From IMG/VR virus record IMGVR_UViG_3300029705_000042: 64,000 nucleotides of DNA. The stretch is one strand, 5' to 3'. Shown one piece after another: positions 853 through 46,172 of the stretch. The notes beneath the pieces were generated by a model. That model searched no databases and had not been told where the DNA came from. It saw nothing but the letters and a program-made list of their open reading frames with translations. The number at the start of each line of letters is the position of its first letter. Position 1 is the first letter of the stretch. This stretch comes from a virus (taxonomy: Duplodnaviria; Caudoviricetes). Position numbers and translations under genes: made by a program.

Positions 853-1395
853 TTATTCCTCGTCCTCATAAGGTACATTGCATTTGATGTTGGTCAGCAC
901 ATAACTCCAAGCAGTTCCATAATGAGTCACACCCCATACATACATATCAAGTTCCTCATTGTAGAATACAATCTCGTTGATTTCTTTGAGAATTTCCGCT
1001 CCATTGTCGCTTACAATGTAATACTGATAACATTCTTCGTTATAAGAATCTTCCTGCTCTTCTTCAAGCTCATTGATTTTATCTTGAAGTTCTTCCATCT
1101 TGCTTACCATAGCAAGATGTTTTTCACTGTTCTCAAAGCTTTCGTCTGCATCAATCATTTCGCTGATATCATACATAATGCTGTCGATTTCTTCCTGAAG
1201 TTCTTCGATTTCTTCCGTGTTGTCTACCATTCCGCTTTCCTGCTCCCAGTAGCCTATTTCATAGGTTTTCTGGATGATGTCGTTATTCAACACAGCATCA
1301 AAAGCTTTTGCCAAAGTTCCGTAATCAACATATCCGTTTTCCTGTCCGTATTCGCTGATTTCGTTTCCGTAAAAGTATTTTCCGTGTACCTGCAT
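853..1395 (-). CDS. Acidic hypothetical protein with central coiled coil
   Basis: ORF track 853..1407; ATG at 1395 downstream of AAGGAG preferred. Confidence 0.8.
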   Translation of the reverse strand: MQVHGKYFYGNEISEYGQENGYVDYGTLAKAFDAVLNNDIIQKTYEIGYWEQESGMVDNTEEIEELQEEIDSIMYDISEMIDADESFENSEKHLAMVSKMEELQDKINELEEEQEDSYNEECYQYYIVSDNGAEILKEINEIVFYNEELDMYVWGVTHYGTAWSYVLTNIKCNVPYEDEE

Positions 1396-1467
1396 GTTGT
1401 TTTTCAACTCCTTATATTTATAATTTTATTTGTTGACTTGTTTATAGGACGATTTTTCAATCGTCCG

Positions 1468-1671: not shown

Positions 1672-1700
1672 AGTATAGCATACGAAACATACCTTGTCAA
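1672..1700 (-). promoter_or_regulatory. Sigma70/SigA promoter with extended -10
   Basis: TTGACA-17 bp-TATACT with TG at the extended -10 position. Confidence 0.85.
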
Positions 1701-1759: not shown

Positions 1760-1969
1760 TTAATCAATGGATTTTCCAATAGCATTCATACAAGCTTCAC
1801 GGAAGAATGTGTTTTTTGGAATATTATTTTCCTCGCAGTACGCTTCAATATCTTCCAACTCTGTGATTTTGAATAAAACTGTCTGGCGTTTATAATTTTT
1901 CTTTTCGTATTCTTTCCTTGCTTTTTTATTACACTCCATTTGATTCTTTTCTCTTATTGTCTTTGCCAT
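1760..1969 (-). CDS. Small basic protein, possible ribbon-helix-helix DNA-binding regulator
   Basis: Start moved to MAKTIREK (RBS AAAGGAGG); KRQTVLFK strand followed by two helices (NIPKNTFFREAC). Confidence 0.6.
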   Translation of the reverse strand: MAKTIREKNQMECNKKARKEYEKKNYKRQTVLFKITELEDIEAYCEENNIPKNTFFREACMNAIGKSID

Positions 1970-1994: not shown

Positions 1995-2081
1995 AGCATA
2001 CCCACTACTTTAGATTTGTGGTGTGTAGCTTTAAACAGCGGATTTCTTGTAGCTTTCCGCTGTCCTATCAGCTTTTATGCT
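1995..2081 (-). ncRNA. Twister ribozyme, permuted type P5 (copy A)
   Basis: agcau..AGCU GA UAG [P1 gacagcgga/uccgcuguu] U^AA AGCU AC..accac..U CUA AA GU..gugg..augcu; T1 UAG/CUA, T2 AC/GU; predicted cut 2033/2032. Confidence 0.8.
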
Positions 2082-2278
2082 ATTATTATGTCGCTCATAT
2101 CCATTGGTTTTCCAACCTTATTCCATTGTGTTACGCTGATTTGATACCCTTCGCTTTCGGGGAATTTTTCTTTGAAAATCATATACATCCCTTCCGCTTG
2201 CGTTAAGCTTGTAATACTTCTTTCCGCTGTTGCAAAAAAGTGATAACCATTCTTTGAAACATTGATTTCATAATACAT
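2075..2278 (-). CDS. Hypothetical protein (67 aa)
   Basis: ORF track; AGGAGG RBS. Confidence 0.8.
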   Translation of the reverse strand: MYYEINVSKNGYHFFATAERSITSLTQAEGMYMIFKEKFPESEGYQISVTQWNKVGKPMDMSDIIIA

Positions 2279-2291
2279 AATACTTTCCTCC

Positions 2292-2681
2292 TTATGCTTT
2301 CAAAGTTTCAACCAATTCAACAAGTTTATCATAAAAATCTTCCGAAACATAACCAGCAAGATAACCGCCAATCTCATTTATCCATTGATAGATAAATTCA
2401 TCTTCGTCATCTTCATACTGGCAACTTTCGTACCAATTTTCTTTGGTAAACTCTTTGAATTTTTCCATATTGTTTGTGATAAGTTCCGTCCACTTCACAA
2501 TTAAAATATCGTCGTTCTGTTCTTCCAATTCGACTTTCTTCATCAGTTCAATGCAGAATTTATCATAATTATCTTCCGCATCTTCTTCGTCAATGTAGCA
2601 AACAGTAACTCCAGTATCAAAAACTGTGTCGCAGGTATCGTAATCGTTCTGGGAGATTTTCATAAAGTCATATAATTTCAT
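2292..2681 (-). CDS. Acidic hypothetical protein (129 aa)
   Basis: ORF track; GAAGGAAGG RBS. Confidence 0.8.
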   Translation of the reverse strand: MKLYDFMKISQNDYDTCDTVFDTGVTVCYIDEEDAEDNYDKFCIELMKKVELEEQNDDILIVKWTELITNNMEKFKEFTKENWYESCQYEDDEDEFIYQWINEIGGYLAGYVSEDFYDKLVELVETLKA

Positions 2682-2710
2682 ATAATTTTCCTTCCTTCTC
2701 TTTTTATTTT

Positions 2711-2787
2711 AGCACCTACCTACTTTGGATATGGTAGTGTAGCTTTACTACGGAAAATAAATTTTCCGTAGCCATCAGCCTTATGCC
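2711..2787 (-). ncRNA. Twister ribozyme, permuted type P5 (copy B)
   Basis: ggcau..GGCU GA UGG [P1 cuacggaaaau/auuuuccguag] U^AA AGCU AC..uacc..U CCA AA GU..ggua..gugcu; T1 UGG/CCA; predicted cut 2747/2746. Confidence 0.8.
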
Positions 2788-3986
2788 TTGATAGTACATC
2801 TTGTCAGCTCTGTCTGTTTGACTCCCTTGTACTCATTGTGCGCTTTAATTGTTCCCTTGATTTTCCCTTTAAAATCGTCTTGCAACCAATTTGAAGTTTT
2901 CCATGTGAAAATGTTTCCATTTTCATCAACGATTTTGTAAATTGTGACAGTACCAAAATCGGTTGACCAACTTGTTAAAGCCTTAACAAGTGATACACAA
3001 AATTCAATTCTATCACCAATCTTTCCAACATGAGCGGAAATTTCTCGCTCTTTTTGTTTTTCTTCTTCCAATTTTCTACGCTGGGATTCTTTTTCAAGCT
3101 CCTTATCATAAGTAGGAAGAAGAGAAACCAAAATACCGATTTGTCCATAATTAACAAATCTCAAACTTCCGACAACCTTCAAATTATGCATATAATTTCC
3201 GTTGCCTTCTTGATTTGCCAACCATTCAAGAGCAGATTTTGCGATTCTTTCCGCTTTTGCGCTATGTGCATCGAATGCAACTCTTCGCATTTCTTCCTCG
3301 CATTGCTCCTCCATCTCTTTGCTCATCGGAAGACCTCCATGCTCTACAAAGTAGTAGTCCATAGTTTGCTTTTTGGTATTTCGTTCACTTGTGTTATATG
3401 CAGGGATATAACCAAAATGACGAATGGTTTCGCTTGCGTAACATAAGATTTCAAAAGTATCATAATATCTTTGCATTGTACCAAGATTATTGACTTCCTC
3501 ACCTTGAATAAGTTCGTCAAAATAGGCAATATACCTTGCTATATTTTCCGCACTCATTCCGTTTGTAAAGTCCTTCAAACAAGCCTTTCCAACCTGCTTG
3601 AATTCTCCATTTTCGGTATTCTGCACAATATAAGTATATTTCCGTACTCTGTTACTATTGCAATGTTCACAAATCGGGTCAGCATTGTAGTAATTTTCTG
3701 GAATTTCAATTTCAGCGGATTCTACCGACTTTTTGAAGATATTTCCTTTTTCGGTATGCTCTACCGTTGCAATGAATTTCCAGTTATTAATGATTGCCGT
3801 TCCACTTGCTTCTACTATGATGAATTTTGCGGTGTATGTTTTGCCATTTTCCATCTTGACTTCTTTAAACTCTTCGCCAATCCGTTCATAGTGAAAATCA
3901 CAACCGTATTTTTCACACTTGTTTCGGATAGCGTTCAACTTCTTTTCAAGTCTTTCCAGATTTCCTTCAAAAATAGAATATTGCAT
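2781..3986 (-). CDS. Phage protein (401 aa) with CxxC motif and possible C-terminal OB-like domain
   Basis: CEHC..NRVR..FKQVGKACL motif; beta-rich C-terminus; GGAGG RBS. Confidence 0.75.
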   Translation of the reverse strand: MQYSIFEGNLERLEKKLNAIRNKCEKYGCDFHYERIGEEFKEVKMENGKTYTAKFIIVEASGTAIINNWKFIATVEHTEKGNIFKKSVESAEIEIPENYYNADPICEHCNSNRVRKYTYIVQNTENGEFKQVGKACLKDFTNGMSAENIARYIAYFDELIQGEEVNNLGTMQRYYDTFEILCYASETIRHFGYIPAYNTSERNTKKQTMDYYFVEHGGLPMSKEMEEQCEEEMRRVAFDAHSAKAERIAKSALEWLANQEGNGNYMHNLKVVGSLRFVNYGQIGILVSLLPTYDKELEKESQRRKLEEEKQKEREISAHVGKIGDRIEFCVSLVKALTSWSTDFGTVTIYKIVDENGNIFTWKTSNWLQDDFKGKIKGTIKAHNEYKGVKQTELTRCTIKA

Positions 3987-4024
3987 AGCTCCCTCCGTTT
4001 TTATTTTCCTTTTCTTTTTAATTC

Positions 4025-4103
4025 AGCATACCGCTTACTTTGGATATAGCGGTGTACCTTTAACAAGACAGATATTTCCGTCTTGCCCATCAGGGTTTAT
4101 GCT
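4025..4103 (-). ncRNA. Twister ribozyme, permuted type P5 (copy C)
   Basis: agcau..ACCCU GA UGG [P1 gcaagacgga/ucugucuugu] U^AA AGGU AC accgcu..U CCA AA GU..agcggu augcu; predicted cut 4062/4061. Confidence 0.78.
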
Positions 4104-4186
4104 TTGTTTAATTCTTCATCCAACTCTTTTAAAGCTTGTTCAAGTTCTTTTAAGAGTTGGTAGGTGTATAAGTCATAGACTTTCAT
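4097..4186 (-). CDS. Micro-protein (29 aa, MKVYDLYTYQLLKELEQALKELDEELNKA)
   Basis: GGAGGTG RBS; ends GCA TAA inside twister C like the other twister-preceding genes. Confidence 0.65.
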   Translation of the reverse strand: MKVYDLYTYQLLKELEQALKELDEELNKA

Positions 4187-4216
4187 TTTTTTACACCTCC
4201 CAGATAAAATTCTCCG

Positions 4217-4552
4217 TCAAGCTTCGTTGTGTTTGTCAATGATTTTCTGCAAGTCTGGCGTGATATTTTCCAAGACAGTATAGCCGTTTGCTTCTAACGC
4301 TTCTTCCATACCTTCTTTAATAAAATACTGTGTAACATCTTCAAATTGAATATCTTCCACGAAATTGTTTGCACCTACCCAGCCTTGTACATCATTTTCG
4401 TCGGGATTTACATAATCCCAACCAGCAACAAGCTCAAGATTAATTAAAATATATTCCGTATTGCCGTATGTTTCAAATTCTCCTACCTTGTAAACAAGAT
4501 TCCCAGTATCATTGACAACATAGAATTTATGATTTTCAAGATAATGTTTCAT
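4217..4552 (-). CDS. Hypothetical protein (111 aa)
   Basis: ORF track; GAAGGA RBS. Confidence 0.8.
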   Translation of the reverse strand: MKHYLENHKFYVVNDTGNLVYKVGEFETYGNTEYILINLELVAGWDYVNPDENDVQGWVGANNFVEDIQFEDVTQYFIKEGMEEALEANGYTVLENITPDLQKIIDKHNEA

Positions 4553-4587
4553 AATTTATTCCTTCTCTCTTTTTATTTTTGTGGCTT

Positions 4588-4655
4588 CCCACTACACCCA
4601 GCGGAATTTTCCGCTGAATGTTTCGGCTGGTTGCCGTCCAGCCTCATCAGGTAGG
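4588..4655 (-). ncRNA. Hammerhead ribozyme type I (HH1)
   Basis: ccuac CUGAUGA ggcugg/ccagcc GAAA cauucagcgg/ccgcugggug UA^ guggg; GUA triplet; cut 4593/4592. Confidence 0.92.
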
Positions 4656-5198
4656 TCAATGTGCATACTCATAAACTGCTTCTCCGTTTGAGAAAATTCC
4701 AAGGCAATGCAATTCTCTCCATCCGTATTCGGGAGCAACCTTTTCCATCCAACGATTGATTTTGCGAATTTCCGCATCATACTTGCGAATTGCTTGACTT
4801 CTACACATATCATAGTAGTATCTGCAATCCTCATTGTCTAGTTCGTGCGGATTTTCCTTTTCTTCCACGAAAAGCTGAATACCTGTATAATATCCGCTTT
4901 TGAAAACGATTTTGTGGAATGTTAGAGTATCGTTCAATTCTTCCATCTTGTCTTTAAATCCGTCATAACCATTGATAATGTCATCATAGAATGTTTCATT
5001 CCATAAATCCATTGTTTCATTATAGGATTTTTCCAGAATGTGTTTTTTCCATTCGTCAGAAACAGCGACTTCATATTCAGGATAATAATACTCATCATAC
5101 TGAAATTCTTCCGCTTCATATTCTTCCAAACTGATAGGCTCAAAGGCTTGAATGTAAAGGCTAAAATTTTTCTGGGTATAAAAGTTTGGTGTACTCAT
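4656..5198 (-). CDS. Hypothetical protein (180 aa, MSTPNFYTQ...)
   Basis: Start corrected to ATG 5198 (RBS AAGGAAGG); the longer ORF-track start runs through HH2. Confidence 0.8.
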   Translation of the reverse strand: MSTPNFYTQKNFSLYIQAFEPISLEEYEAEEFQYDEYYYPEYEVAVSDEWKKHILEKSYNETMDLWNETFYDDIINGYDGFKDKMEELNDTLTFHKIVFKSGYYTGIQLFVEEKENPHELDNEDCRYYYDMCRSQAIRKYDAEIRKINRWMEKVAPEYGWRELHCLGIFSNGEAVYEYAH

Positions 5199-5233
5199 AA
5201 TATACCATCCTTCCTTTTCTCTTTTTAGTGATT

Positions 5234-5299
5234 TCTCACGACAAGAGGAAATTTTCCTCTTGTTTCGGACGGTCATCATCCGTCCATCATCAGGTGAGA
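5234..5299 (-). ncRNA. Hammerhead ribozyme type I (HH2)
   Basis: ucucac CUGAUGA u ggacgg/ccgucc GAAA caagaggaa/uuccucuug UC^ gugaga; cut 5240/5239. Confidence 0.92.
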
Positions 5300-5302
5300 T
5301 TT

Positions 5303-5644
5303 TCAATAAATATCAACCGAAAAATCCGTTTCATTGTCACCATCGAAAAGCTCTTCATATCCTGCTTTGTTGTATTCTGCGGAAATAATAATCCAGTTGA
5401 TTTCTTCCGTATAGACAATTTCTCCAAACTGTTCCAGATATTCTTTGATACTTTCCGCATCCTTCGGTCTACAAGTGACATATACATCGTTTCCGCTGTC
5501 ATTTTCCACCTTGTAGAACATATCAGGATATTCCCTTGCATTATTCCATATATGCAAGAATGACAACGCATATTTCTGTACACCACCTTCAAGACGGACG
5601 GTGATTCGGATTGCTTTTTCTTTTTCATAGAACAAATTAATCAT
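5303..5644 (-). CDS. Hypothetical protein (113 aa)
   Basis: ORF track; AAAGGA RBS; lies between HH3 and HH2. Confidence 0.8.
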   Translation of the reverse strand: MINLFYEKEKAIRITVRLEGGVQKYALSFLHIWNNAREYPDMFYKVENDSGNDVYVTCRPKDAESIKEYLEQFGEIVYTEEINWIIISAEYNKAGYEELFDGDNETDFSVDIY

Positions 5645-5680
5645 GATTTTTTCCTTTTCTTTTTTAAATTTTTGTAGTTT

Positions 5681-5739
5681 CCTACGACACGGATTTCTCC
5701 GTGTTTCGACAAGTAACTATCTTGTCATCATCAGGTAGG
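5681..5739 (-). ncRNA. Hammerhead ribozyme type I (HH3)
   Basis: ccuac CUGAUGA u gacaag/cuuguc GAAA cacgga/uccgug UC^ guagg; cut 5686/5685. Confidence 0.92.
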
Positions 5740-5741
5740 TT

Positions 5742-6113
5742 TCAAATTTCACAGCAAGTTAAATTCCAAGCGTTTCCAAGCTCGTAATATAATCCGTATT
5801 TTCCAAGAATTTTGGAAAATTCCATCTCAAATTTTGCTCCCCAGTATCCATTTAATACTTCGTATAAACTTCCTTCAAAGCTCATACTCAAAATATTTGG
5901 CTCTGCGACATACTCAAAATAATCCTTCGGGTTTGCCTCATACTCAAAATATTTATTTTGGTTATAGCAAAATTCTGTTCCGTCCTTGCTATTTGTGCTC
6001 CAGCATTTTCCATTAAAATAAATGTGTACATCAATCCACAATTCATTTTTAATCAAAAATGCGTGAATTTCCTTTGCTAACTGTTCAATTTTTTTATGCT
6101 GTTTTGCATTCAT
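5742..6113 (-). CDS. Hypothetical protein (123 aa, MNAKQHKKIE...)
   Basis: Start corrected to ATG 6113 (RBS AAGGGAG). Confidence 0.8.
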   Translation of the reverse strand: MNAKQHKKIEQLAKEIHAFLIKNELWIDVHIYFNGKCWSTNSKDGTEFCYNQNKYFEYEANPKDYFEYVAEPNILSMSFEGSLYEVLNGYWGAKFEMEFSKILGKYGLYYELGNAWNLTCCEI

Positions 6114-6146
6114 TTTTGACAGCTCCCTTTTCGCTTTTATGTGGTT

Positions 6147-6202
6147 TTCCACGACGCTCCAAGCGTTTCGGCAAGTGACCAACTTGCCATCGTCAGGTGG
6201 AA
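6147..6202 (-). ncRNA. Hammerhead ribozyme type I (HH4)
   Basis: uuccac CUGACGA u ggcaagu/acuugcc GAAA cgcu/agcg UC^ guggaa; cut 6153/6152. Confidence 0.92.
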
Positions 6203-6203
6203 T

Positions 6204-6320
6204 TTACTTTTGTCCGTCAAATTTACAAATACCTTCTTTGACAGCTTCTTTTGCGATTTCTCCCTTGCCAGTAGTCAGGAAGATAATCCAATTCAAGATT
6301 GATTTTAGTACTTTTTTCAT
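6204..6320 (-). CDS. Micro-protein (38 aa, MKKVLKSILNWIIFLTTGKG...)
   Basis: GGAGG RBS; ATGA overlap with the upstream stop. Confidence 0.7.
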   Translation of the reverse strand: MKKVLKSILNWIIFLTTGKGEIAKEAVKEGICKFDGQK

Positions 6321-6523
6321 ACGATTTTTCCTCCGCATTTAATAATACTTGCAATTATAACCATTGTTTCGGATTCTCCGAAGTGCATTCTATAACGCAA
6401 CATGTTATATATTTCTTCAAATGATATGGGATTACCAGATAATGTATTTCCGAAGTATGCAGTATTATCTTTGTTTGCGTTAATAATCTGTTCACATTCT
6501 TTTTTCGTCCAATGATTTTTCAT
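6317..6523 (-). CDS. Hypothetical protein (68 aa)
   Basis: ORF track; AAAGGA RBS. Confidence 0.75.
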   Translation of the reverse strand: MKNHWTKKECEQIINANKDNTAYFGNTLSGNPISFEEIYNMLRYRMHFGESETMVIIASIIKCGGKIV

Positions 6524-6557
6524 ATGATTTTTTCCTTTTCTTTTTATTCAGGTTTTC

Positions 6558-6627
6558 ACCTACCCCAGCGGATAAAACCGCTGGACGCTCACGGCTTAAA
6601 GGTCTGTTTATACTTGCCGTGACAAGT
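6558..6627 (-). ncRNA. Pistol ribozyme (copy 1)
   Basis: P1 acuug/caagu with loop ucacgg; AUAAACAG; P2 accu/aggu; UUAA; pseudoknot gccguga; GCG; P3 uccagcgg/ccgcuggg; G^U site 6563/6562. Confidence 0.9.
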
Positions 6628-6629
6628 TT

Positions 6630-6986
6630 TTAAAGCATCGTGTAAAGCTCTTGCAGGTCTGCATAAAATACAGGTTTGTTTTCGGCAAGGTCTTGCATCA
6701 TGACAGCTTCTTTTGCTCCCGTCATACGCTTTATATTGTGCTTGCGTTTGTATGCTTCTCTAAAGTCTGCAAATTCAGCATCAAGCAAAGCATAAACGCA
6801 TCTTTTCATGACGGATTGATAACAGTATGATTCCCAAGTACGATTATAGTACTGAACTTTTGCCTCGCCTATCAAACTACCGTTTTTATACAGTTTTGTT
6901 TCATGTACAAAACCAGAACGATTTGAACGATAGGAATTGACAAATTCATACTCATTATTGTTTATAATCTTTGTTGTAGTACTCAT
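6630..6986 (-). CDS. Hypothetical protein (118 aa, MSTTTKIINN...)
   Basis: Start corrected to ATG 6986 (RBS GGAAGGTG). Confidence 0.8.
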   Translation of the reverse strand: MSTTTKIINNNEYEFVNSYRSNRSGFVHETKLYKNGSLIGEAKVQYYNRTWESYCYQSVMKRCVYALLDAEFADFREAYKRKHNIKRMTGAKEAVMMQDLAENKPVFYADLQELYTML

Positions 6987-7010
6987 AATATAGCACCTTC
7001 CTTTTCTTTT

Positions 7011-7072
7011 AATCTGGACGCCTTGACTTGCAAGGCGTTTCGTCTTAATTTTCAAAGACTCATCAGCAGATT
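7011..7072 (-). ncRNA. Hammerhead ribozyme type I (HH5)
   Basis: aaucug CUGAUGA gucuu/aagac GAAA cgccuug/caaggcg UC^ cagauu; cut 7017/7016. Confidence 0.93.
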
Positions 7073-7073
7073 T

Positions 7074-7325
7074 TTATATTACGCTTAATTCTTTTAATGC
7101 TTTTTTGCCTAGCGTATAAATATGCGTATCATCACAATTATATTTTTCATACCATTCGCACATAGTATTTGAGCCTATAAAAGCACGGAGACAGTCAAAA
7201 GTTAAACGCTTTTCAAAGTCGTTATATTGACCGCTTGCCTTTAGTTTTGGAGCGTATTCTTTGATTTTATCAATATGCTTTTCAAATTGATTTTTTACAA
7301 ATTCAAATTCATTTTGAAGCTTCAT
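7074..7325 (-). CDS. Hypothetical protein (83 aa)
   Basis: ORF track; GGAAGGT RBS. Confidence 0.8.
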   Translation of the reverse strand: MKLQNEFEFVKNQFEKHIDKIKEYAPKLKASGQYNDFEKRLTFDCLRAFIGSNTMCEWYEKYNCDDTHIYTLGKKALKELSVI

Positions 7326-7360
7326 GACTTATACCTTCCTTTTCTTTTTATTGAGTTTTC

Positions 7361-7431
7361 GCTCATCCCAGCCTTTATTGAGGCTGGACGCTCCCAGCTT
7401 AAGAGCCTATTTTTAATCGCTGGGACGATTA
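7361..7431 (-). ncRNA. Pistol ribozyme (copy 2)
   Basis: P1 aaucg/cgauu with loop ucccag; AAAAAUAG; P2 gcuc/gagc; UUAA; pseudoknot gcuggga; GCG; P3 uccagccu/aggcuggg; A^U site 7366/7365; compensatory changes relative to copy 1. Confidence 0.88.
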
Positions 7432-7434
7432 TTT

Positions 7435-7704
7435 TTAACAAGTAATTAAATAACTATTTTTTGTAGTTACAATACGCCAGCCGTTTTTTACTTGCCAAGA
7501 TACTGTATATTGATAATCGTTATAACTGCAAATATGAAAGTTTTTGCCGTGTTCTGCTGAACACTTAAAAATTAAATCAATGAAAATATGATTTTCTAAA
7601 GGCGTATAACTTGAATAAATGTCATCAATCAAAAAGCCTTTGTCTTGTTTGGCTAGTTTAATCATTGCCTGACCTTTATGCGTTTTGCCGTCGATAACTT
7701 TCAT
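7435..7704 (-). CDS. Hypothetical protein (89 aa)
   Basis: ORF track; AAGGGAG RBS. Confidence 0.8.
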   Translation of the reverse strand: MKVIDGKTHKGQAMIKLAKQDKGFLIDDIYSSYTPLENHIFIDLIFKCSAEHGKNFHICSYNDYQYTVSWQVKNGWRIVTTKNSYLITC

Positions 7705-7740
7705 TTTTGACAGCTCCCTTTTCTCTTTTTATAGGATTTT

Positions 7741-7796
7741 ATCCCGACGCCCGTGCTGGGCGTTTCGTCGTAATTTTCAACGACTCATCAGGGGAT
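7741..7796 (-). ncRNA. Hammerhead ribozyme type I (HH6)
   Basis: auccc CUGAUGA gucgu/acgac GAAA cgccc/gggcg UC^ gggau; cut 7746/7745. Confidence 0.93.
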
Positions 7797-7807
7797 TTTA
7801 CGGGGAA

Positions 7808-8161
7808 TTATATAAAATACATTTCCCCGTTAATCTCAAGAGCAACAGCATCCTGATTCAATTCTGTTTTTACTGTCTCGCAAAAATCAATTACTTTTTC
7901 GATATTGTTTTGTAAATCTGTATCGCTACAATATGCAAATACCATTGTTGAACGTTCTTTTACTAAACCAGCAGAAGGGCTTACCCAGTATCCCAGAGCC
8001 TCGCAAGATGTAGCACCGCCGAAAGACTCGGAAAGTAAAACAGCGCAAGCATCAATATATTTTTTTGTGTTTGCTGTCTGGTTTATATCTACTGTTGACG
8101 GGATATAAACTGTAATTTTGCTAGACAATTTAAACATATTTTTTAATTTTGCGTTCATCAT
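7808..8161 (-). CDS. Hypothetical protein (117 aa), first gene of the leftward operon
   Basis: ORF track; GGAGG RBS; FGGAT..GYW motif. Confidence 0.8.
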   Translation of the reverse strand: MMNAKLKNMFKLSSKITVYIPSTVDINQTANTKKYIDACAVLLSESFGGATSCEALGYWVSPSAGLVKERSTMVFAYCSDTDLQNNIEKVIDFCETVKTELNQDAVALEINGEMYFI

Positions 8162-8190
8162 TTTTGACCGCCTCCATTATCTTTTTATTT

Positions 8191-8243
8191 TGCCTATCGC
8201 CTTTTTACATACGGGCTTTAGACCGTCAACGGCAGGTTTAGCA
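8191..8243 (-). ncRNA. Twister ribozyme type P1
   Basis: ugc U^AA accu GC cguug ACGG U CUA AA GC CCGU augu aaaa aggc GA UAG gca; canonical layout with T1 CUA/UAG; cut 8240/8239. Confidence 0.88.
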
Positions 8244-8390
8244 GGGTATAACCTTAATAGTTATACCCCAGATAAAAAGATAAAGGAAAAGGAATTTTTA
8301 ACGTCGACTTGCTACATTTTCAAGCTTTCAGGTGTACGCCTCATGCGATACTTTTATAACCTTACGACTTGACACGCTTTCAAGCTCGAC

Positions 8391-8605: not shown

Positions 8606-8634
8606 AGTATAGCATACCTTGCAAGGTAAGTCAA
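8606..8634 (-). promoter_or_regulatory. Sigma70 promoter with palindromic operator in the spacer
   Basis: TTGACT-17 bp-TATACT (TG extended -10); spacer holds perfect palindrome TACCTTGCAAGGTA (8615-8628). Confidence 0.8.
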
Positions 8635-8737
8635 TAAACAAACTGTAAATTAATTTTGAACAATTTGTGAACGACTTTCACTAGCTCGTATGCTGTCAAT
8701 CAGGCGAGCGTTTGCCGTTTGCCTTTTTGACGATATC

Positions 8738-8766
8738 ATTTTACCATACTTTGCAAGGAATGTCAA
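8738..8766 (-). promoter_or_regulatory. Tandem sigma70 promoter with operator variant
   Basis: TTGACA-17 bp-TAAAAT; spacer holds TACTTTGCAAGGAA (8747-8760, plus strand). Confidence 0.75.
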
Positions 8767-9933: not shown

Positions 9934-10130
9934 TATATCAGCAAAATAATTTATCAAATTATTGATTATTCAACTAATAAAGTTATAATAAATAATATTA
10001 ACACAAAATAATAATTATAATTATAACATAGTATAAAAATTATAATCCTCTATATTCAATAAATCGGCAGCAGATGAGCGTAGCTCATTAGTATTCTTAT
10101 ACTTTTATTATACTTATAGGATAGAAGTCG

Positions 10131-10200
10131 AAAAAGGGGTACAAAAAGTACCCCAAAATGACGCAAGTTTGACAAAAAGGGGTACAAAAAATACCCTTTT
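10131..10200. repeat. Direct/inverted repeats AAAAAGGGGTACAAAAA x2
   Basis: Copies at 10131 and 10174; GGGGTAC-N5-GTACCCC inverted repeat at 10136-10154. Confidence 0.75.
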
Positions 10201-10262
10201 TTCACCACGATAGTATTTATGATATCTGATGGATGTGATATTTTTGAAAGGAGATGATATAA

Positions 10263-11168
10263 GTGGATATGCGTGACAATGACGATAAAGATTATAAATA
10301 TGAATATTCTAAAACTCTATTAACAGATATGGAATCAAAATATATATACCTCCCTTTGTCTGTCATTGTAAACAATGAAATAGATGTAAAAAGAATTGGC
10401 ATATTATCATATCTAAGAATACACTGTGGCTTAAATGATATGGTAGGTTTTACTGTTCCAGATATGGTTGAATGGTGTGGTATGAAGCCAAATAATAGAG
10501 ATGGGAAAACTAATGATAAATTCTTAAGCGTTATAAATGATTTAAGTAGTATGGGCTATTTAACATATTTGACCGAACAAAGTAAAAGCTCTTATATTAA
10601 ATGCAAGTTTAATACTGAGTTATATTATAATGAATGTTCTAATGGATATGCTGTTGTATATTTGGATGAATTTAAAAAAATAATGGATTATAAAAACTTG
10701 CAAGGTAATTCTGTCAATAATGTAACCATGCTCCTTGTCTTTGCTTATTTAAGAAACAGAATAAGACGGAGACCAAATGAATTAAAACCAGAAGAAAGAA
10801 CATTAGACGGTATAAGGCAAAGAAAAGAAAGATTGCCAGATGCTTTTGATGGTAATATTTCTGATATCGCAAAAGAGTTAGGAATACACAAACAAACTCT
10901 CTCAAAAACAATTAATATTCTTGAACAAGAATTAGAATTAATAATAACTGACAGAGCTTATAGAATTAAAATTGATAATAATGAATTTAGAACACTGCCT
11001 ACTATCTTTGCCAACTCTTATAAACGAGAAGATAAATATTTGTTAGCTGCTGGTGAAGAATATAGTAGAGCGGAAATTGAGTTAAAAGCTCAAAATATGA
11101 AACAACATTATCAAGAATATAAAATTGATAAAAGAAAAAGAAAAAACAATAATGAAAGGAGGAATTAA
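10263..11168 (+). CDS. HTH-containing DNA-binding protein, possible replication initiator or regulator
   Basis: ISDIAKELGIHKQTLSKTINILE HTH; a second wHTH-like segment near the N-terminus; next to the repeat-rich spacer. Confidence 0.55.
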   Translation: MDMRDNDDKDYKYEYSKTLLTDMESKYIYLPLSVIVNNEIDVKRIGILSYLRIHCGLNDMVGFTVPDMVEWCGMKPNNRDGKTNDKFLSVINDLSSMGYLTYLTEQSKSSYIKCKFNTELYYNECSNGYAVVYLDEFKKIMDYKNLQGNSVNNVTMLLVFAYLRNRIRRRPNELKPEERTLDGIRQRKERLPDAFDGNISDIAKELGIHKQTLSKTINILEQELELIITDRAYRIKIDNNEFRTLPTIFANSYKREDKYLLAAGEEYSRAEIELKAQNMKQHYQEYKIDKRKRKNNNERRN

Positions 11169-43200: not shown

Positions 43201-45870
43201 AAGATAGAATCTGAAATTGAAAAGGCTAAATCTAAGATTGCAGAAATAAATAATAGTTCTGTTAGTCCAGAAGTTAAAACCGCTCAATTAGAAGACGCAC
43301 GAGCAAAGTTAGAAGCGTTAATTCAAAAGAAACAAGAAGCAAGTCAACCTGCTTTTATGAATTTGAACACTTCTCAAGTCAATGCTTCTCTTGTTGATGC
43401 TCTTGAAAAAATTCAATCTTATCAAGCCGCTCTTAATGAACTTAATGAGTTAAAAGAACTTAAAGCTGCTGGCATTGCCATTGATGATACAGAGATAGCT
43501 GCTGCTGAAGAAAAACTTGACGGATTTGCAAAAGCAATCCAAGGTCTTGATGGCGATGTTAAGGTTGCAATCGGTCTTGAAGAAGACGGCAGTATTGATT
43601 CTATTCATAAGGCTTTTGAAGAAGGCAAAGTTAAAATAGATGCAAATACAGACCCCGCTCTTAATAAGATTGAACAACTTGCTGAAAATGTTGAAAGAAT
43701 TGAAGATAAAGATGTAACAATTAATGTTACGGTCAATGGTTTAAATGATGTTAAAGAACTCAATAAACAAATTGACCTTGCTACTGATATTCAAGGCGAC
43801 ATTGATAAATTATCTGAATATGTAGAAAATGCTAAGGAATTAAGTAAGCTTGGAAATAATATTACTTCAAAAGTTACCGCAGATGTTCAAGGTAATGTTA
43901 TTAAAACCCCAGAATATGAAATTAACAATTTAAAGGTGTTTACTGACGGTGCCAAGGATGTTCATTCTATAGGGTATGTTTCAAGCAAGGTCACTGCCGA
44001 TATTGATGGCAATGTTTTTGATAATAGTGAGCGTACTATTGACAATCTTAAAGCATACACAGATAGTGCCAAAGATATCAAAGAATTCAAAGGTGATATA
44101 TCAAGCAAAATTACTGCAGATATTGAGGGTGATGTCTTTGATAAAAATGAAAGCACTATTAATAATCTTGAGGTATTCGTTGATAGTGCAAAAGGCATAA
44201 AAGAAATTGAAGGTAATATTGTAAGTAATATTACTGCTAACACACTCGGTAGCGTATTTACCGACAAAGAACGCAGCATCGATAATCTCGATGTGTATAT
44301 CGAAAGTGCTAAAGGCATTAGGGATATCGAGGGTAATATTGTAAGTAATATTACCGCTGATGTTGATGGTAGTGTATTTACAGATAGTGAACGCACCATT
44401 GATAATCTCAAAGTATTTATTGACAGTGCTAAAGGAATAAAAGATTTCGAAGGAGATACTATCAGTAATATTACTGCAAACACTTTGGGTAACGTGTTTA
44501 CTGATAGTGAGCGTACTACCGACAATCTCAAAACTTTCATTGAAAGTGCTAATGGTATTAAAGATATCAAAGGTGACATTGTTAGTAACATCACAGCAAA
44601 TACCCTTGGCAGTGTATTCACTGATGAAGAAAAATCTCTTGATAATCTTAGTGTATTCATAGAGAGTGCAAAAGGTATCAAGGATATTCAAGGCGATATA
44701 GTTAGTAACATTACTGCCAATACTTTAGGTAGTGTTTTCGAAGACAAAGAGCGTAGCATTGACAACCTTAAAGTCTTTACTGAAAGTGCAAAGGGAATCA
44801 AAGAGATTGAAGGCGATATCGTAAGTAATATTACCGCCAATACTTTAGGAAGTGTCTTTGAAGACCCAGAAAGAGAAACAAACAACCTTAAAGTTTTTGT
44901 AGATAGTGCTAAGGGCATAAAAGACATTGAGGGTGATATTGTAAGCAATATCACAGCTAACACTTTAGGTAGTGTATTTACTGATAAAGAGAGGTCAATT
45001 GATAATCTCAAAGTATTTATTGATAGTGCAAAGGGAATCAAAGAGATTGAAGGAAACATTTCCAGTAAAATTACTGCTGATGTTGACGGAAATGTATTTG
45101 ATAAATATGAAACTACCATAGACAATCTCGGTGTATTTGTAAAAAATGCAAAGGGTATTAAGAGCGTTGAAGGTGAGGTTTCAAGCAAGGTTACTGCTAA
45201 TGTATATGGCAATGTACTCACCTCTGAAGATGACAAGATTTCCAATCTTGGTGTTTTTGCAGATAACGCCAATAAACTAAAAGGTCTTGGCAATTTTTCA
45301 AGTAGTGTTTCTGCAAATGCTACTGGCAATGTTGTTGAAGGCGAAGGTGCTGCAAGTAGGCTCTCTTCTTTAACCGAATTTAAATCTATAGTTAGCGGAA
45401 TGACAAATCAAACAGTGACTGTTAGTGTTACTGCCAAGGTAGATTCTGAAAATGTCAATGCTGCTATTGATTTATTGAGAAAGGTATCTGACAGCGGTGT
45501 GTTCAAGGATTATAACGCAACTGTTCAAGTCGGTGCTAAAATTGCTAAAATTGACGATACAGTAGTACAAAATTATAAAGCACCTTCAAAGGATAGTACT
45601 GTTAAATATAGTGTAGACCCAGAATCGAGTGTTTACACTTGGACTGCGCCTCCAAAAGATGGGGTTGTTAATTATAGTGCGAGTGTTGAAGCATTAACGG
45701 ATGCACAAAAGCACAAAACTGGAACGATTACTTATAAAGCTAAACTTGAAGGTTTTCCTGTTGCCACTGGAACAGCTAATGCCGATGGTTCGGCTAATGG
45801 TCGTGCTTTTTCTCGTGGAAATTGGGGCATAAAAGGAAGCGGTGTTGCCCTTGGTGGCGAGTTAGGTCGT
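40215..45870 (+). CDS. Tape measure protein, exon 2
   Basis: In frame with the 40270 ORF; hydrophobic segments, coiled coils and 40-aa repeats; ends LGGELGR. Confidence 0.85.
43861..45340 (+). repeat. About 12 tandem 120-bp (40-aa) repeats in the tape measure gene
   Basis: Unit IVSNITANTLGSVFTDKERSIDNLKVFIDSAKGIKEIEGD recurs every 120 nt (44218, 44338 ... 45058). Confidence 0.9.
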
Positions 45871-46022
45871 AAAATATTGCGACCATACATAGTGATATGT
45901 ATTAAAAAATCTATTTAATTGCTGGAAAATCCTTAGAGTTATCCTGCTACAACATAAGTCGTGAGACTAAGTGTGAATGCTTAAAAAGTGGATAAATTGG
46001 ACAATCAGCAGCCAAATTCCTA

Positions 46023-46051
46023 TTGACAAAATATTACTATTGTGATATAAT
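46023..46051 (+). promoter_or_regulatory. Consensus sigma70 promoter inside intron 2
   Basis: TTGACA-17 bp-TATAAT ~120 nt upstream of the intron ORF. Confidence 0.75.
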
Positions 46052-46172
46052 TATGATAGGAAGAGGTTCAACGACTATCCCCTGTGTGGGAGTAGAGCTA
46101 CAAGCGATTGGTAGTTCGAAAAGGTAGATATGTGAAATTAAAATAAATTTATTGATAAAGGTGGTGAGAAAA

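Follow-up and report, generated by a model that had tools for sequence, protein, structure and literature searches.

Self-cleaving ribozymes associated with phage genes have been described previously. Multiple hammerheads flank prophage genes in Clostridium scindens, Agrobacterium and Azorhizobium, and Perreault et al. (2011) proposed that they cut long transcripts of the phage into mRNAs spanning an operon or a gene; tandem phage hammerheads were cleaved in vitro within native transcripts of about 2 kb (PMC3088659). Reviews point out that twister, hammerhead and pistol ribozymes share gene neighbourhoods, and treat their function as unresolved (PMC6765202, PMC4604425, PMC6155905). The operon analyzed here lies on the minus strand of a 64,000-nucleotide (nt) stretch of phage DNA (IMG/VR record IMGVR_UViG_3300029705_000042; the whole stretch is referred to as the window). 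It is about 6.5 kb long, comprises 15 small genes (g1–g15; downstream limit 1760) and carries 12 ribozyme motifs: six hammerheads, two pistols and four twisters. The operon is a very dense new example of an already known arrangement, and the processing hypothesis is itself not new (PMC3088659, PMC6765202). New comparative evidence comes from (i) class swaps in front of orthologous genes, (ii) a terminator-promoter layout in sibling phages and (iii) hairpins at both cut ends.

As in the prophages of Perreault et al., small phage genes, singly or in short blocks, are bordered by several ribozymes on the same strand; unlike in those prophages, 12 elements of three classes occupy 11 of the 14 gene junctions plus the leader, and orthologous slots could be compared across siblings. 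The locus also resembles the neighbourhoods of Roth 2014 and Weinberg 2015 (twister, pistol, hatchet and twister-sister) in that the classes co-occur near small Firmicutes phage genes (PMC6765202, PMC4604425). As summarized in these reviews, the two studies argue from shared gene associations, whereas here the swap is seen before the same orthologous gene in three related phages.

Two further systems provide analogies. The early transcript of phage T7 is cut by RNase III, a host protein, which leaves 5′-phosphate and 3′-OH ends. The present operon would be similar in that a long early transcript is cut between cistrons, with hairpins left at the new ends, and would differ in that the RNA is predicted to cut itself, leaving 5′-OH and cyclic phosphate ends. 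In RiboJ, an engineered insulator that standardizes the 5′ leader, a hairpin stands between the self-cleaving ribozyme and the ribosome-binding site; the order of elements in the operon is reminiscent of such insulators, with the difference that this array is natural. The role of self-cleaving ribozymes in bacteria and phages has been a standing question since 2011–2015, for which this locus and its siblings offer a natural comparison.

Identification of the ribozymes

A first-pass annotation of the window, made from the sequence alone, had claimed 12 minus-strand elements with full catalytic cores. All 12 were found to be intact and located on the coding strand. They represent three classes and four architectures within 6.3 kb, and provide twelve exact predicted cut sites (listed in the order of transcription):

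8190–8244, minus strand: type-P1 twister without P3, cut 8240/8239 (U-A); Rfam 28.5 bits versus a cut-off of 67.2, E 0.009
7741–7796, minus strand: type-I hammerhead, cut 7746/7745; descriptor match, 85% identical to the copy upstream of the g2 orthologue in the related phage L107
7361–7430, minus strand: pistol, cut 7366/7365, AU where GU is usual, 2-nt junction length kept; Rfam 60.2 bits (cut-off 34.5)
7011–7090 (descriptor 7011–7072), minus strand: type-I hammerhead with a RAGATH-1-like upstream hairpin, cut 7017/7016; Rfam 39.3 bits, E 9e-4 at 7012–7090
6558–6627, minus strand: pistol, cut 6563/6562; Rfam 69.2 bits (RF02679, cut-off 34.5)
6147–6202, minus strand: type-I hammerhead, extra U between A9 and G10.1, cut 6153/6152; descriptor match
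5681–5739, minus strand: type-I hammerhead, extra U, cut 5686/5685; descriptor match
5234–5299, minus strand: type-I hammerhead, extra U, cut 5240/5239; descriptor match
4588–4655, minus strand: type-I hammerhead, H17 = A, cut 4593/4592; descriptor match
4025–4103, minus strand: twister type-P5 variant, T1 UAC:GUA, T2 UGG:CCA, P5 strand overlapping the g11 stop codon, cut 4062/4061; covariation
2711–2788, minus strand: twister type-P5 variant, cut 2747/2746; covariation
1995–2081, minus strand: twister type-P5 variant, T2 UAG:CUA, cut 2033/2032; covariation

The Rfam check proposed in the annotation gave a divided result: both pistols scored above the gathering threshold, and the hammerheads and twisters remained below it, with no match for the three P5 twisters. 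Relaxed thresholds added the hammerhead at 7012–7090 and the type-P1 twister at 8190–8244; the other eight elements did not appear. Most of the elements, among them a twister type-P5 variant that recurs and has altered pseudoknots, thus escape the Rfam thresholds. Judged by their sequences, all 12 elements are nevertheless real, as indicated by Rfam for the pistols, by a descriptor for the hammerheads and by relatives with compensating changes for the twisters, and all 12 predicted cut sites obey the rules of their class.

For the hammerheads, a type-I descriptor was used that asks for the CUGANGA core, stem II as a hairpin, GAAA, stem III as a hairpin with a terminal U, an H at the cleavage position, and stem I. 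Exactly six matches were obtained on the two strands of the window, all on the minus strand, with coordinates and cut sites identical to those claimed, as against a chance expectation of 0.017 matches per 64 kb of simulated sequence. All six retain C3 U4 G5 A6 N7 G8 A9, G12 A13 A14, A15.1-U16.1, H17 and three stems, with stem I open, and no core position is mutated in any copy. Rfam scored only two of the six, and the best scores did not reach the gathering thresholds (39.3 versus 56.3 bits for the RAGATH-1 hammerhead; 32.6 versus 48.5 for Hammerhead_3); the other four copies had no match. Over 40 nt, the cores of two hammerheads (window 7037–7076 and 7760–7799, minus strand) share about 95% identity with regions lacking annotation in the crAss-like phages cr131_1, cr272_1 and cr273_1; apart from these cores, no nucleotide relatives of the window were found in the phage collection.

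Both pistols gave full-length Rfam alignments with P1, P2, P3 and a 2-nt junction at the cut. The dinucleotide at the cut site is known to differ among pistols (PMC4604425).

A P1-twister descriptor demanding both pseudoknots produced a single match in the window (8194–8240), which corresponds to the element in the leader. Its pseudoknot T1 is GC:GC, T2 is CUA:UAG compared with CCC:GGG in the consensus, and P1 is only 3 bp long. Homologues of 47 nt in phages L012, L015 and L056 have T2 CAC:GUG and covarying P2 and P4.

The remaining three twisters display the features of type P5, i.e. a twister fold opened at P5, a conserved UAA, AAG in loop 4 and GA before T2. Both of their pseudoknots deviate from the Rfam model (T1 UAC:GUA versus GC:GC; T2 UGG:CCA or UAG:CUA versus GGG:CCC), and they had no match to RF02684 (gathering score 37.6 bits) at E values up to 10; one relative of this variant scored weakly against the Twister-P5 model (28.5 bits, E 0.046). 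Pattern scans detected the variant in more than 20 viral contigs, each time between a stop codon and a ribosome-binding site. Among 17 distinct copies, each P1 and P4 position shows three to five pair types, with helix positions paired in 16–17 of the 17. P2 occurs as GCU:AGC, CCU:AGG or GCA:UGC, P5 covaries as well, and T2 changes on both sides together (UGG:CCA, UAG:CUA and, in L107, a third form UGA:UCA). Loose patterns for canonical twisters were also tried and were dropped on account of false positives.

The end of g13 (window 2279–2300, minus strand) carries AAAGCATAA, which at the three twisters forms the 5′ strand of P5 and here runs directly into the g14 ribosome-binding site. This sequence may have been left behind by a twister since lost, or may mark a point at which exchange is favoured.

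Placement of the ribozymes and anatomy of the cut ends

The spacing claimed in the first-pass annotation proved accurate. Hammerheads and pistols begin 0–11 nt past the upstream stop codon, P5 twisters overlap it by 7–8 nt, and every element ends 24–38 nt before the next AUG. Each ribozyme is followed by a common A-rich tract and a Shine-Dalgarno sequence, again as claimed, which were detected as direct-repeat families. The three ribozyme-free junctions are, as had been noted, tight pairs with a spacing of at most 30 nt: g5/g6 (ATGA overlap), g10/g11 (30 nt) and g13/g14 (13 nt).

The predicted upstream product of each cut ends 1–4 nt past a stable stem (hammerhead stem III, pistol P3, twister P1, or a hairpin preceding the leader twister). 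Because the cut sits just 3′ of this stem, the upstream RNA would end in a hairpin. In seven of the eight hammerhead and pistol cases the downstream product opens at +1 with a tetraloop hairpin of 4–5 bp into which the 3′ strand of stem I or P2 is incorporated; twister products have P4 near the 5′ end. Among 24 distinct type-I hammerheads from all loci, the +1 hairpin is present in 15, compared with 16.5% at random positions.

Exchange of ribozyme classes at orthologous slots

Two related phages, L107 and L108, share ten operon genes with the window in a shuffled order. The elements located upstream of nine of these genes are as follows:

g1: window, twister-P1; L108, hammerhead
g2: window, hammerhead; L107, hammerhead
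g4: window, hammerhead; L108, hammerhead
g5: window, pistol; L107, twister-P5 variant
g7: window, hammerhead; L108, twister-P5 variant; L107, twister-P1
g8: window, hammerhead; L107, twister-P5 variant
g9: window, hammerhead; L108, canonical twister-P5 (47.8 bits)
g10: window, hammerhead; L108, hammerhead; L107, twister-P5 variant
g15: window, twister-P5 variant; the same variant in L107 and L108

The class is thus changed in front of six of the nine shared genes, which shows at orthologous genes that, as claimed, interchangeable classes fill the same slot. This is direct support for an inference already in the literature, namely that it does not matter which motif is used (PMC6765202). The g12 homologue in phages L005 and L011 is likewise preceded by this twister-P5 variant; a rule suggested by g12 and g13, under which a gene and the ribozyme before it would always move together, was refuted by L107 and L108.

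Comparison of the window with L107 and L108 revealed that homology breaks off at a start codon, a stop codon or the edge of a ribozyme, which identifies the junctions as sites of exchange. The further claim that mixed classes limit recombination found no support; the relatives have shuffled genes, with homology breakpoints at ribozyme and translation-start boundaries.

Ribozyme arrays and terminator-promoter cassettes in related phages

Relatives were gathered via a neighbouring gene encoding a 963-amino-acid (aa) protein, to which the percentage identities given below refer; 80 viral and 41 genomic loci were obtained in this way. A search of viral contigs with g12 alone revealed no relative, and distant g12 homologues, which occur in large Gram-negative phages, were not informative. 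The genome arm containing the operon is hypervariable, and nucleotide similarity to the closest siblings ends at about position 10080–10300.

Arrays of ribozymes are present in the same arm of L107 (87% identity; at least 12 elements), L108 (66%; at least 10), L056, L029 and L024 (65%; at least 8) and L045 (58%; 10), as compared with 12 in the window. The array of L045 includes Rfam-passing pistols and a canonical twister-P5. Arms of this type hold at most one copy of the local promoter motif. No ribozymes were detected in L025 (89%), L106 (91%), L080, L027, L048 and L026, which contain five to eight promoter motifs instead. At equivalent junctions, these cassette-bearing siblings have a unit made up of a terminator hairpin, an AT-rich repeat in several copies and a promoter, which recurs at intervals of one to four genes. 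In L025 (2300–6600, minus strand) and also in L106, the closest siblings of the window phage, each unit consists of a terminator hairpin, three to five TTTAATTTTTAAAAACTA-like AT-rich repeats, a near-consensus promoter and one to four genes. The alternation of two gene-separating layouts between sibling phages speaks in favour of the ribozymes having the task of producing separate mRNAs. Taken together, the same genes behind different classes, and the same arm with either ribozymes or terminator-promoter units, point to protein-free punctuation of the transcript with protected ends.

Elements without a recognized family were observed in ribozyme slots of two relatives (L108:5925–6027, L108:2510–2590 and L150:7262–7330, all minus strand). 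They lie directly past a stop codon and ahead of the shared A-rich start region, and consist of a conserved UUGAACC, a covarying hairpin of 9–13 bp, a conserved AUAUUGAGU, a loop and ACUCAA. There was no Rfam match; only three copies were found, and a scan of the collection gave almost exclusively chance matches. This element is a candidate processing site or a candidate for an undescribed ribozyme.

A model of transcript processing and its alternatives

Upstream of the operon, two tandem promoters were identified, which form a 51-nt direct repeat (80% identity). The next transcription unit, which is devoid of ribozymes, has a promoter of its own:

8606–8766, minus strand: two tandem sigma-70-type promoters with extended −10, TTGACA-17-TAAAAT (8766–8738) and TTGACT-17-TATACT (8634–8606)
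1672–1700, minus strand: promoter of the next transcription unit

No strong minus-strand promoter or intrinsic terminator was found inside the operon, from the upstream promoters to position 1700. The claim of a single self-cutting transcript agrees with all the sequence-level tests (intact cores on the coding strand, promoters at 8766 and 8634, lack of a strong internal promoter or terminator, strict placement, related arrays); such a transcript, its cleavage in infected cells and its “early” timing are presumptive.

We favor, with moderate confidence, a model in which one transcript is processed without protein into mRNAs that are insulated and capped by hairpins. According to this model, host RNA polymerase would start near 8766 and 8634 and generate one transcript of about 6.9 kb, presumably early in infection. 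Each ribozyme would fold and cut itself on emerging, so that the leader RNA is released along with 12 mRNAs that each hold one or two genes, and class chemistry predicts a 2′,3′-cyclic phosphate on the upstream piece and a 5′-OH on the downstream piece. Each mRNA would have hairpin-capped ends and a standard 5′ leader with an A-rich spacer and a Shine-Dalgarno sequence. The translation and decay of each small gene would consequently be insulated from those of its neighbours, so that genes could be freely swapped in and out. The class of the ribozyme would be irrelevant, and fast cleavage at that position would be what counts.

Several points weigh against this model. In Bacillus subtilis, the 5′-OH end produced by the glmS ribozyme is a target of RNase J1. 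As a 5′-OH can attract this nuclease in Firmicutes, cleavage could destabilize the RNA instead of protecting it unless the terminal hairpin blocks the enzyme, and the effect on stability may go either way. The hammerhead product beginning at 7016 has no terminal hairpin. Only two of the 12 elements, the pistols, pass the curated Rfam thresholds and the other ten fall below; three hammerheads (6147, 5681 and 5234) have a U inserted in the core after A9. Tertiary contacts between stems I and II, on which the speed of hammerheads at cellular Mg2+ depends, were not convincing by eye in four of the six hammerheads.

The ribozymes might mainly set different expression levels, with each gene uncoupled by cleavage and the downstream RNA (5′-OH) or the upstream RNA marked for class-specific decay; the array would then act in graded down-regulation and not in stabilization. 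The product without a 5′ hairpin and the decay of glmS 5′-OH RNA by RNase J1 would suit such a role. Differing stabilities or translation efficiencies are, moreover, listed among the proposed outcomes in a review (PMC6765202). However, the class is freely exchanged before the same gene in relatives, which speaks against class-specific tuning, and hairpins flank nearly all the new ends; we consider this explanation unlikely. The low Rfam scores and the core insertions would also be expected if several elements were decayed or too slow in the cell and the operon were mostly read as an uncut polycistron. This is very unlikely, given that no core position is mutated and all stems covary; furthermore, in a viroid hammerhead with an extra base at the same position, changing that base to U increased activity 3–4 fold (PMC3705267).

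Shuffling of genes among the window, L107 and L108, and homology blocks bounded by start codons, stop codons or ribozyme edges, could alternatively mean that the ribozyme and translation-start units chiefly serve as linkers for recombination, or ride selfishly on mobile gene cassettes, and that their self-cleavage is tolerated rather than selected. The short A-rich repeats after each ribozyme and the P5-strand motif present without a twister at the g13 end fit this picture. Cores and pseudoknots have, however, been kept through compensating changes in many phages, which requires selection on the fold and not on DNA homology alone, and this makes the explanation improbable. Hardly credible is the joining of the 5′-OH and 2′,3′-cyclic phosphate ends of ribozyme-flanked fragments by an RtcB-type ligase into circular or spliced RNAs. 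The end chemistry is that of established RtcB substrates, and retrozymes are circularized in this way (PMC6155905), but Perreault et al. sought spliced or circular products and found none (PMC3088659), and Pfam/PHROGs annotation revealed no ligase gene near the operon.

The leader RNA

The transcript would begin with a long untranslated region that is conserved in L107 and L108:

8241–8600, minus strand: GC-rich untranslated leader of about 360 nt with a terminal 9-bp hairpin

The leader is better folded than shuffled sequence (z-score −3.06). It contains a 23-nt pyrimidine tract (about 8268–8292), invariant in the window, L107 and L108, which is complementary to the translation-start regions following the 12 ribozymes (predicted mean −17.7 kcal/mol). 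This pairing beats that of all 300 random 33-mers of the same strand (z −1 to −5 versus shuffles), and the tract pairs with the three ribozyme-free starts only at background level. The tract could also close a long stem in cis around the first twister and the g1 start. The operon might even be a self-contained RNA programme, in which the freed leader, through its antisense tract, globally slows or times the translation of the early genes in trans, with siblings obtaining gene-by-gene control from their terminator-promoter cassettes; this suggestion is speculative and rather unlikely to be correct.

Operon genes and phage context

Pfam and PHROGs searches assigned a function to none of the 15 operon proteins, some of which match PHROG families of unknown function:

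7808–8161, minus strand: g1, 117 aa, phrog_3543 (phage protein, unknown function)
7435–7704, minus strand: g2, 89 aa
7074–7325, minus strand: g3, 83 aa, phrog_9817
6630–6986, minus strand: g4, 118 aa
6204–6523, minus strand: g5 (68 aa) and g6 (38 aa), overlapping stop and start codons, no ribozyme between
5742–6113, minus strand: g7, 123 aa, phrog_35453
5303–5644, minus strand: g8, 113 aa
4656–5198, minus strand: g9, 180 aa
4096–4552, minus strand: g10 (111 aa, phrog_3653) and g11 (29 aa), no ribozyme between
2781–3986, minus strand: g12, 401 aa, phrog_2319
2075–2681, minus strand: g13 (129 aa) and g14 (67 aa), no ribozyme between
1760–1969, minus strand: g15, 69 aa, final operon gene

The window is part of a tailed phage, with genes for the large terminase subunit and a tape-measure protein, and its source is an uncultured gut phage of Clostridia. 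The relatives of this phage are viral contigs of 50–170 kb, many of them binned with Clostridia or Lachnospiraceae genomes; some sit in isolates, e.g. Lientehia hominis and Faecalicatena contorta.

An Rfam-passing pistol (60.3 bits) was found in L108 (1630–1698, minus strand) between homologues of two genes located downstream of the 1700 promoter; the equivalent junction of the window (1395–1467) contains a plain hairpin only. The window additionally encodes a tRNA and a group I intron (45861–46132, plus strand; 60.3 bits). The intron lies between an open reading frame of 1882 aa (end 45918) and one of 423 aa (start 46152), and probably splits one large gene. Other structured RNAs were noted in the relatives: a ROOL RNA (310 bits) beside a tRNA in L009 (941–1505, minus strand), and a drum RNA within a tRNA cluster in L045 (15021–15128, plus strand).

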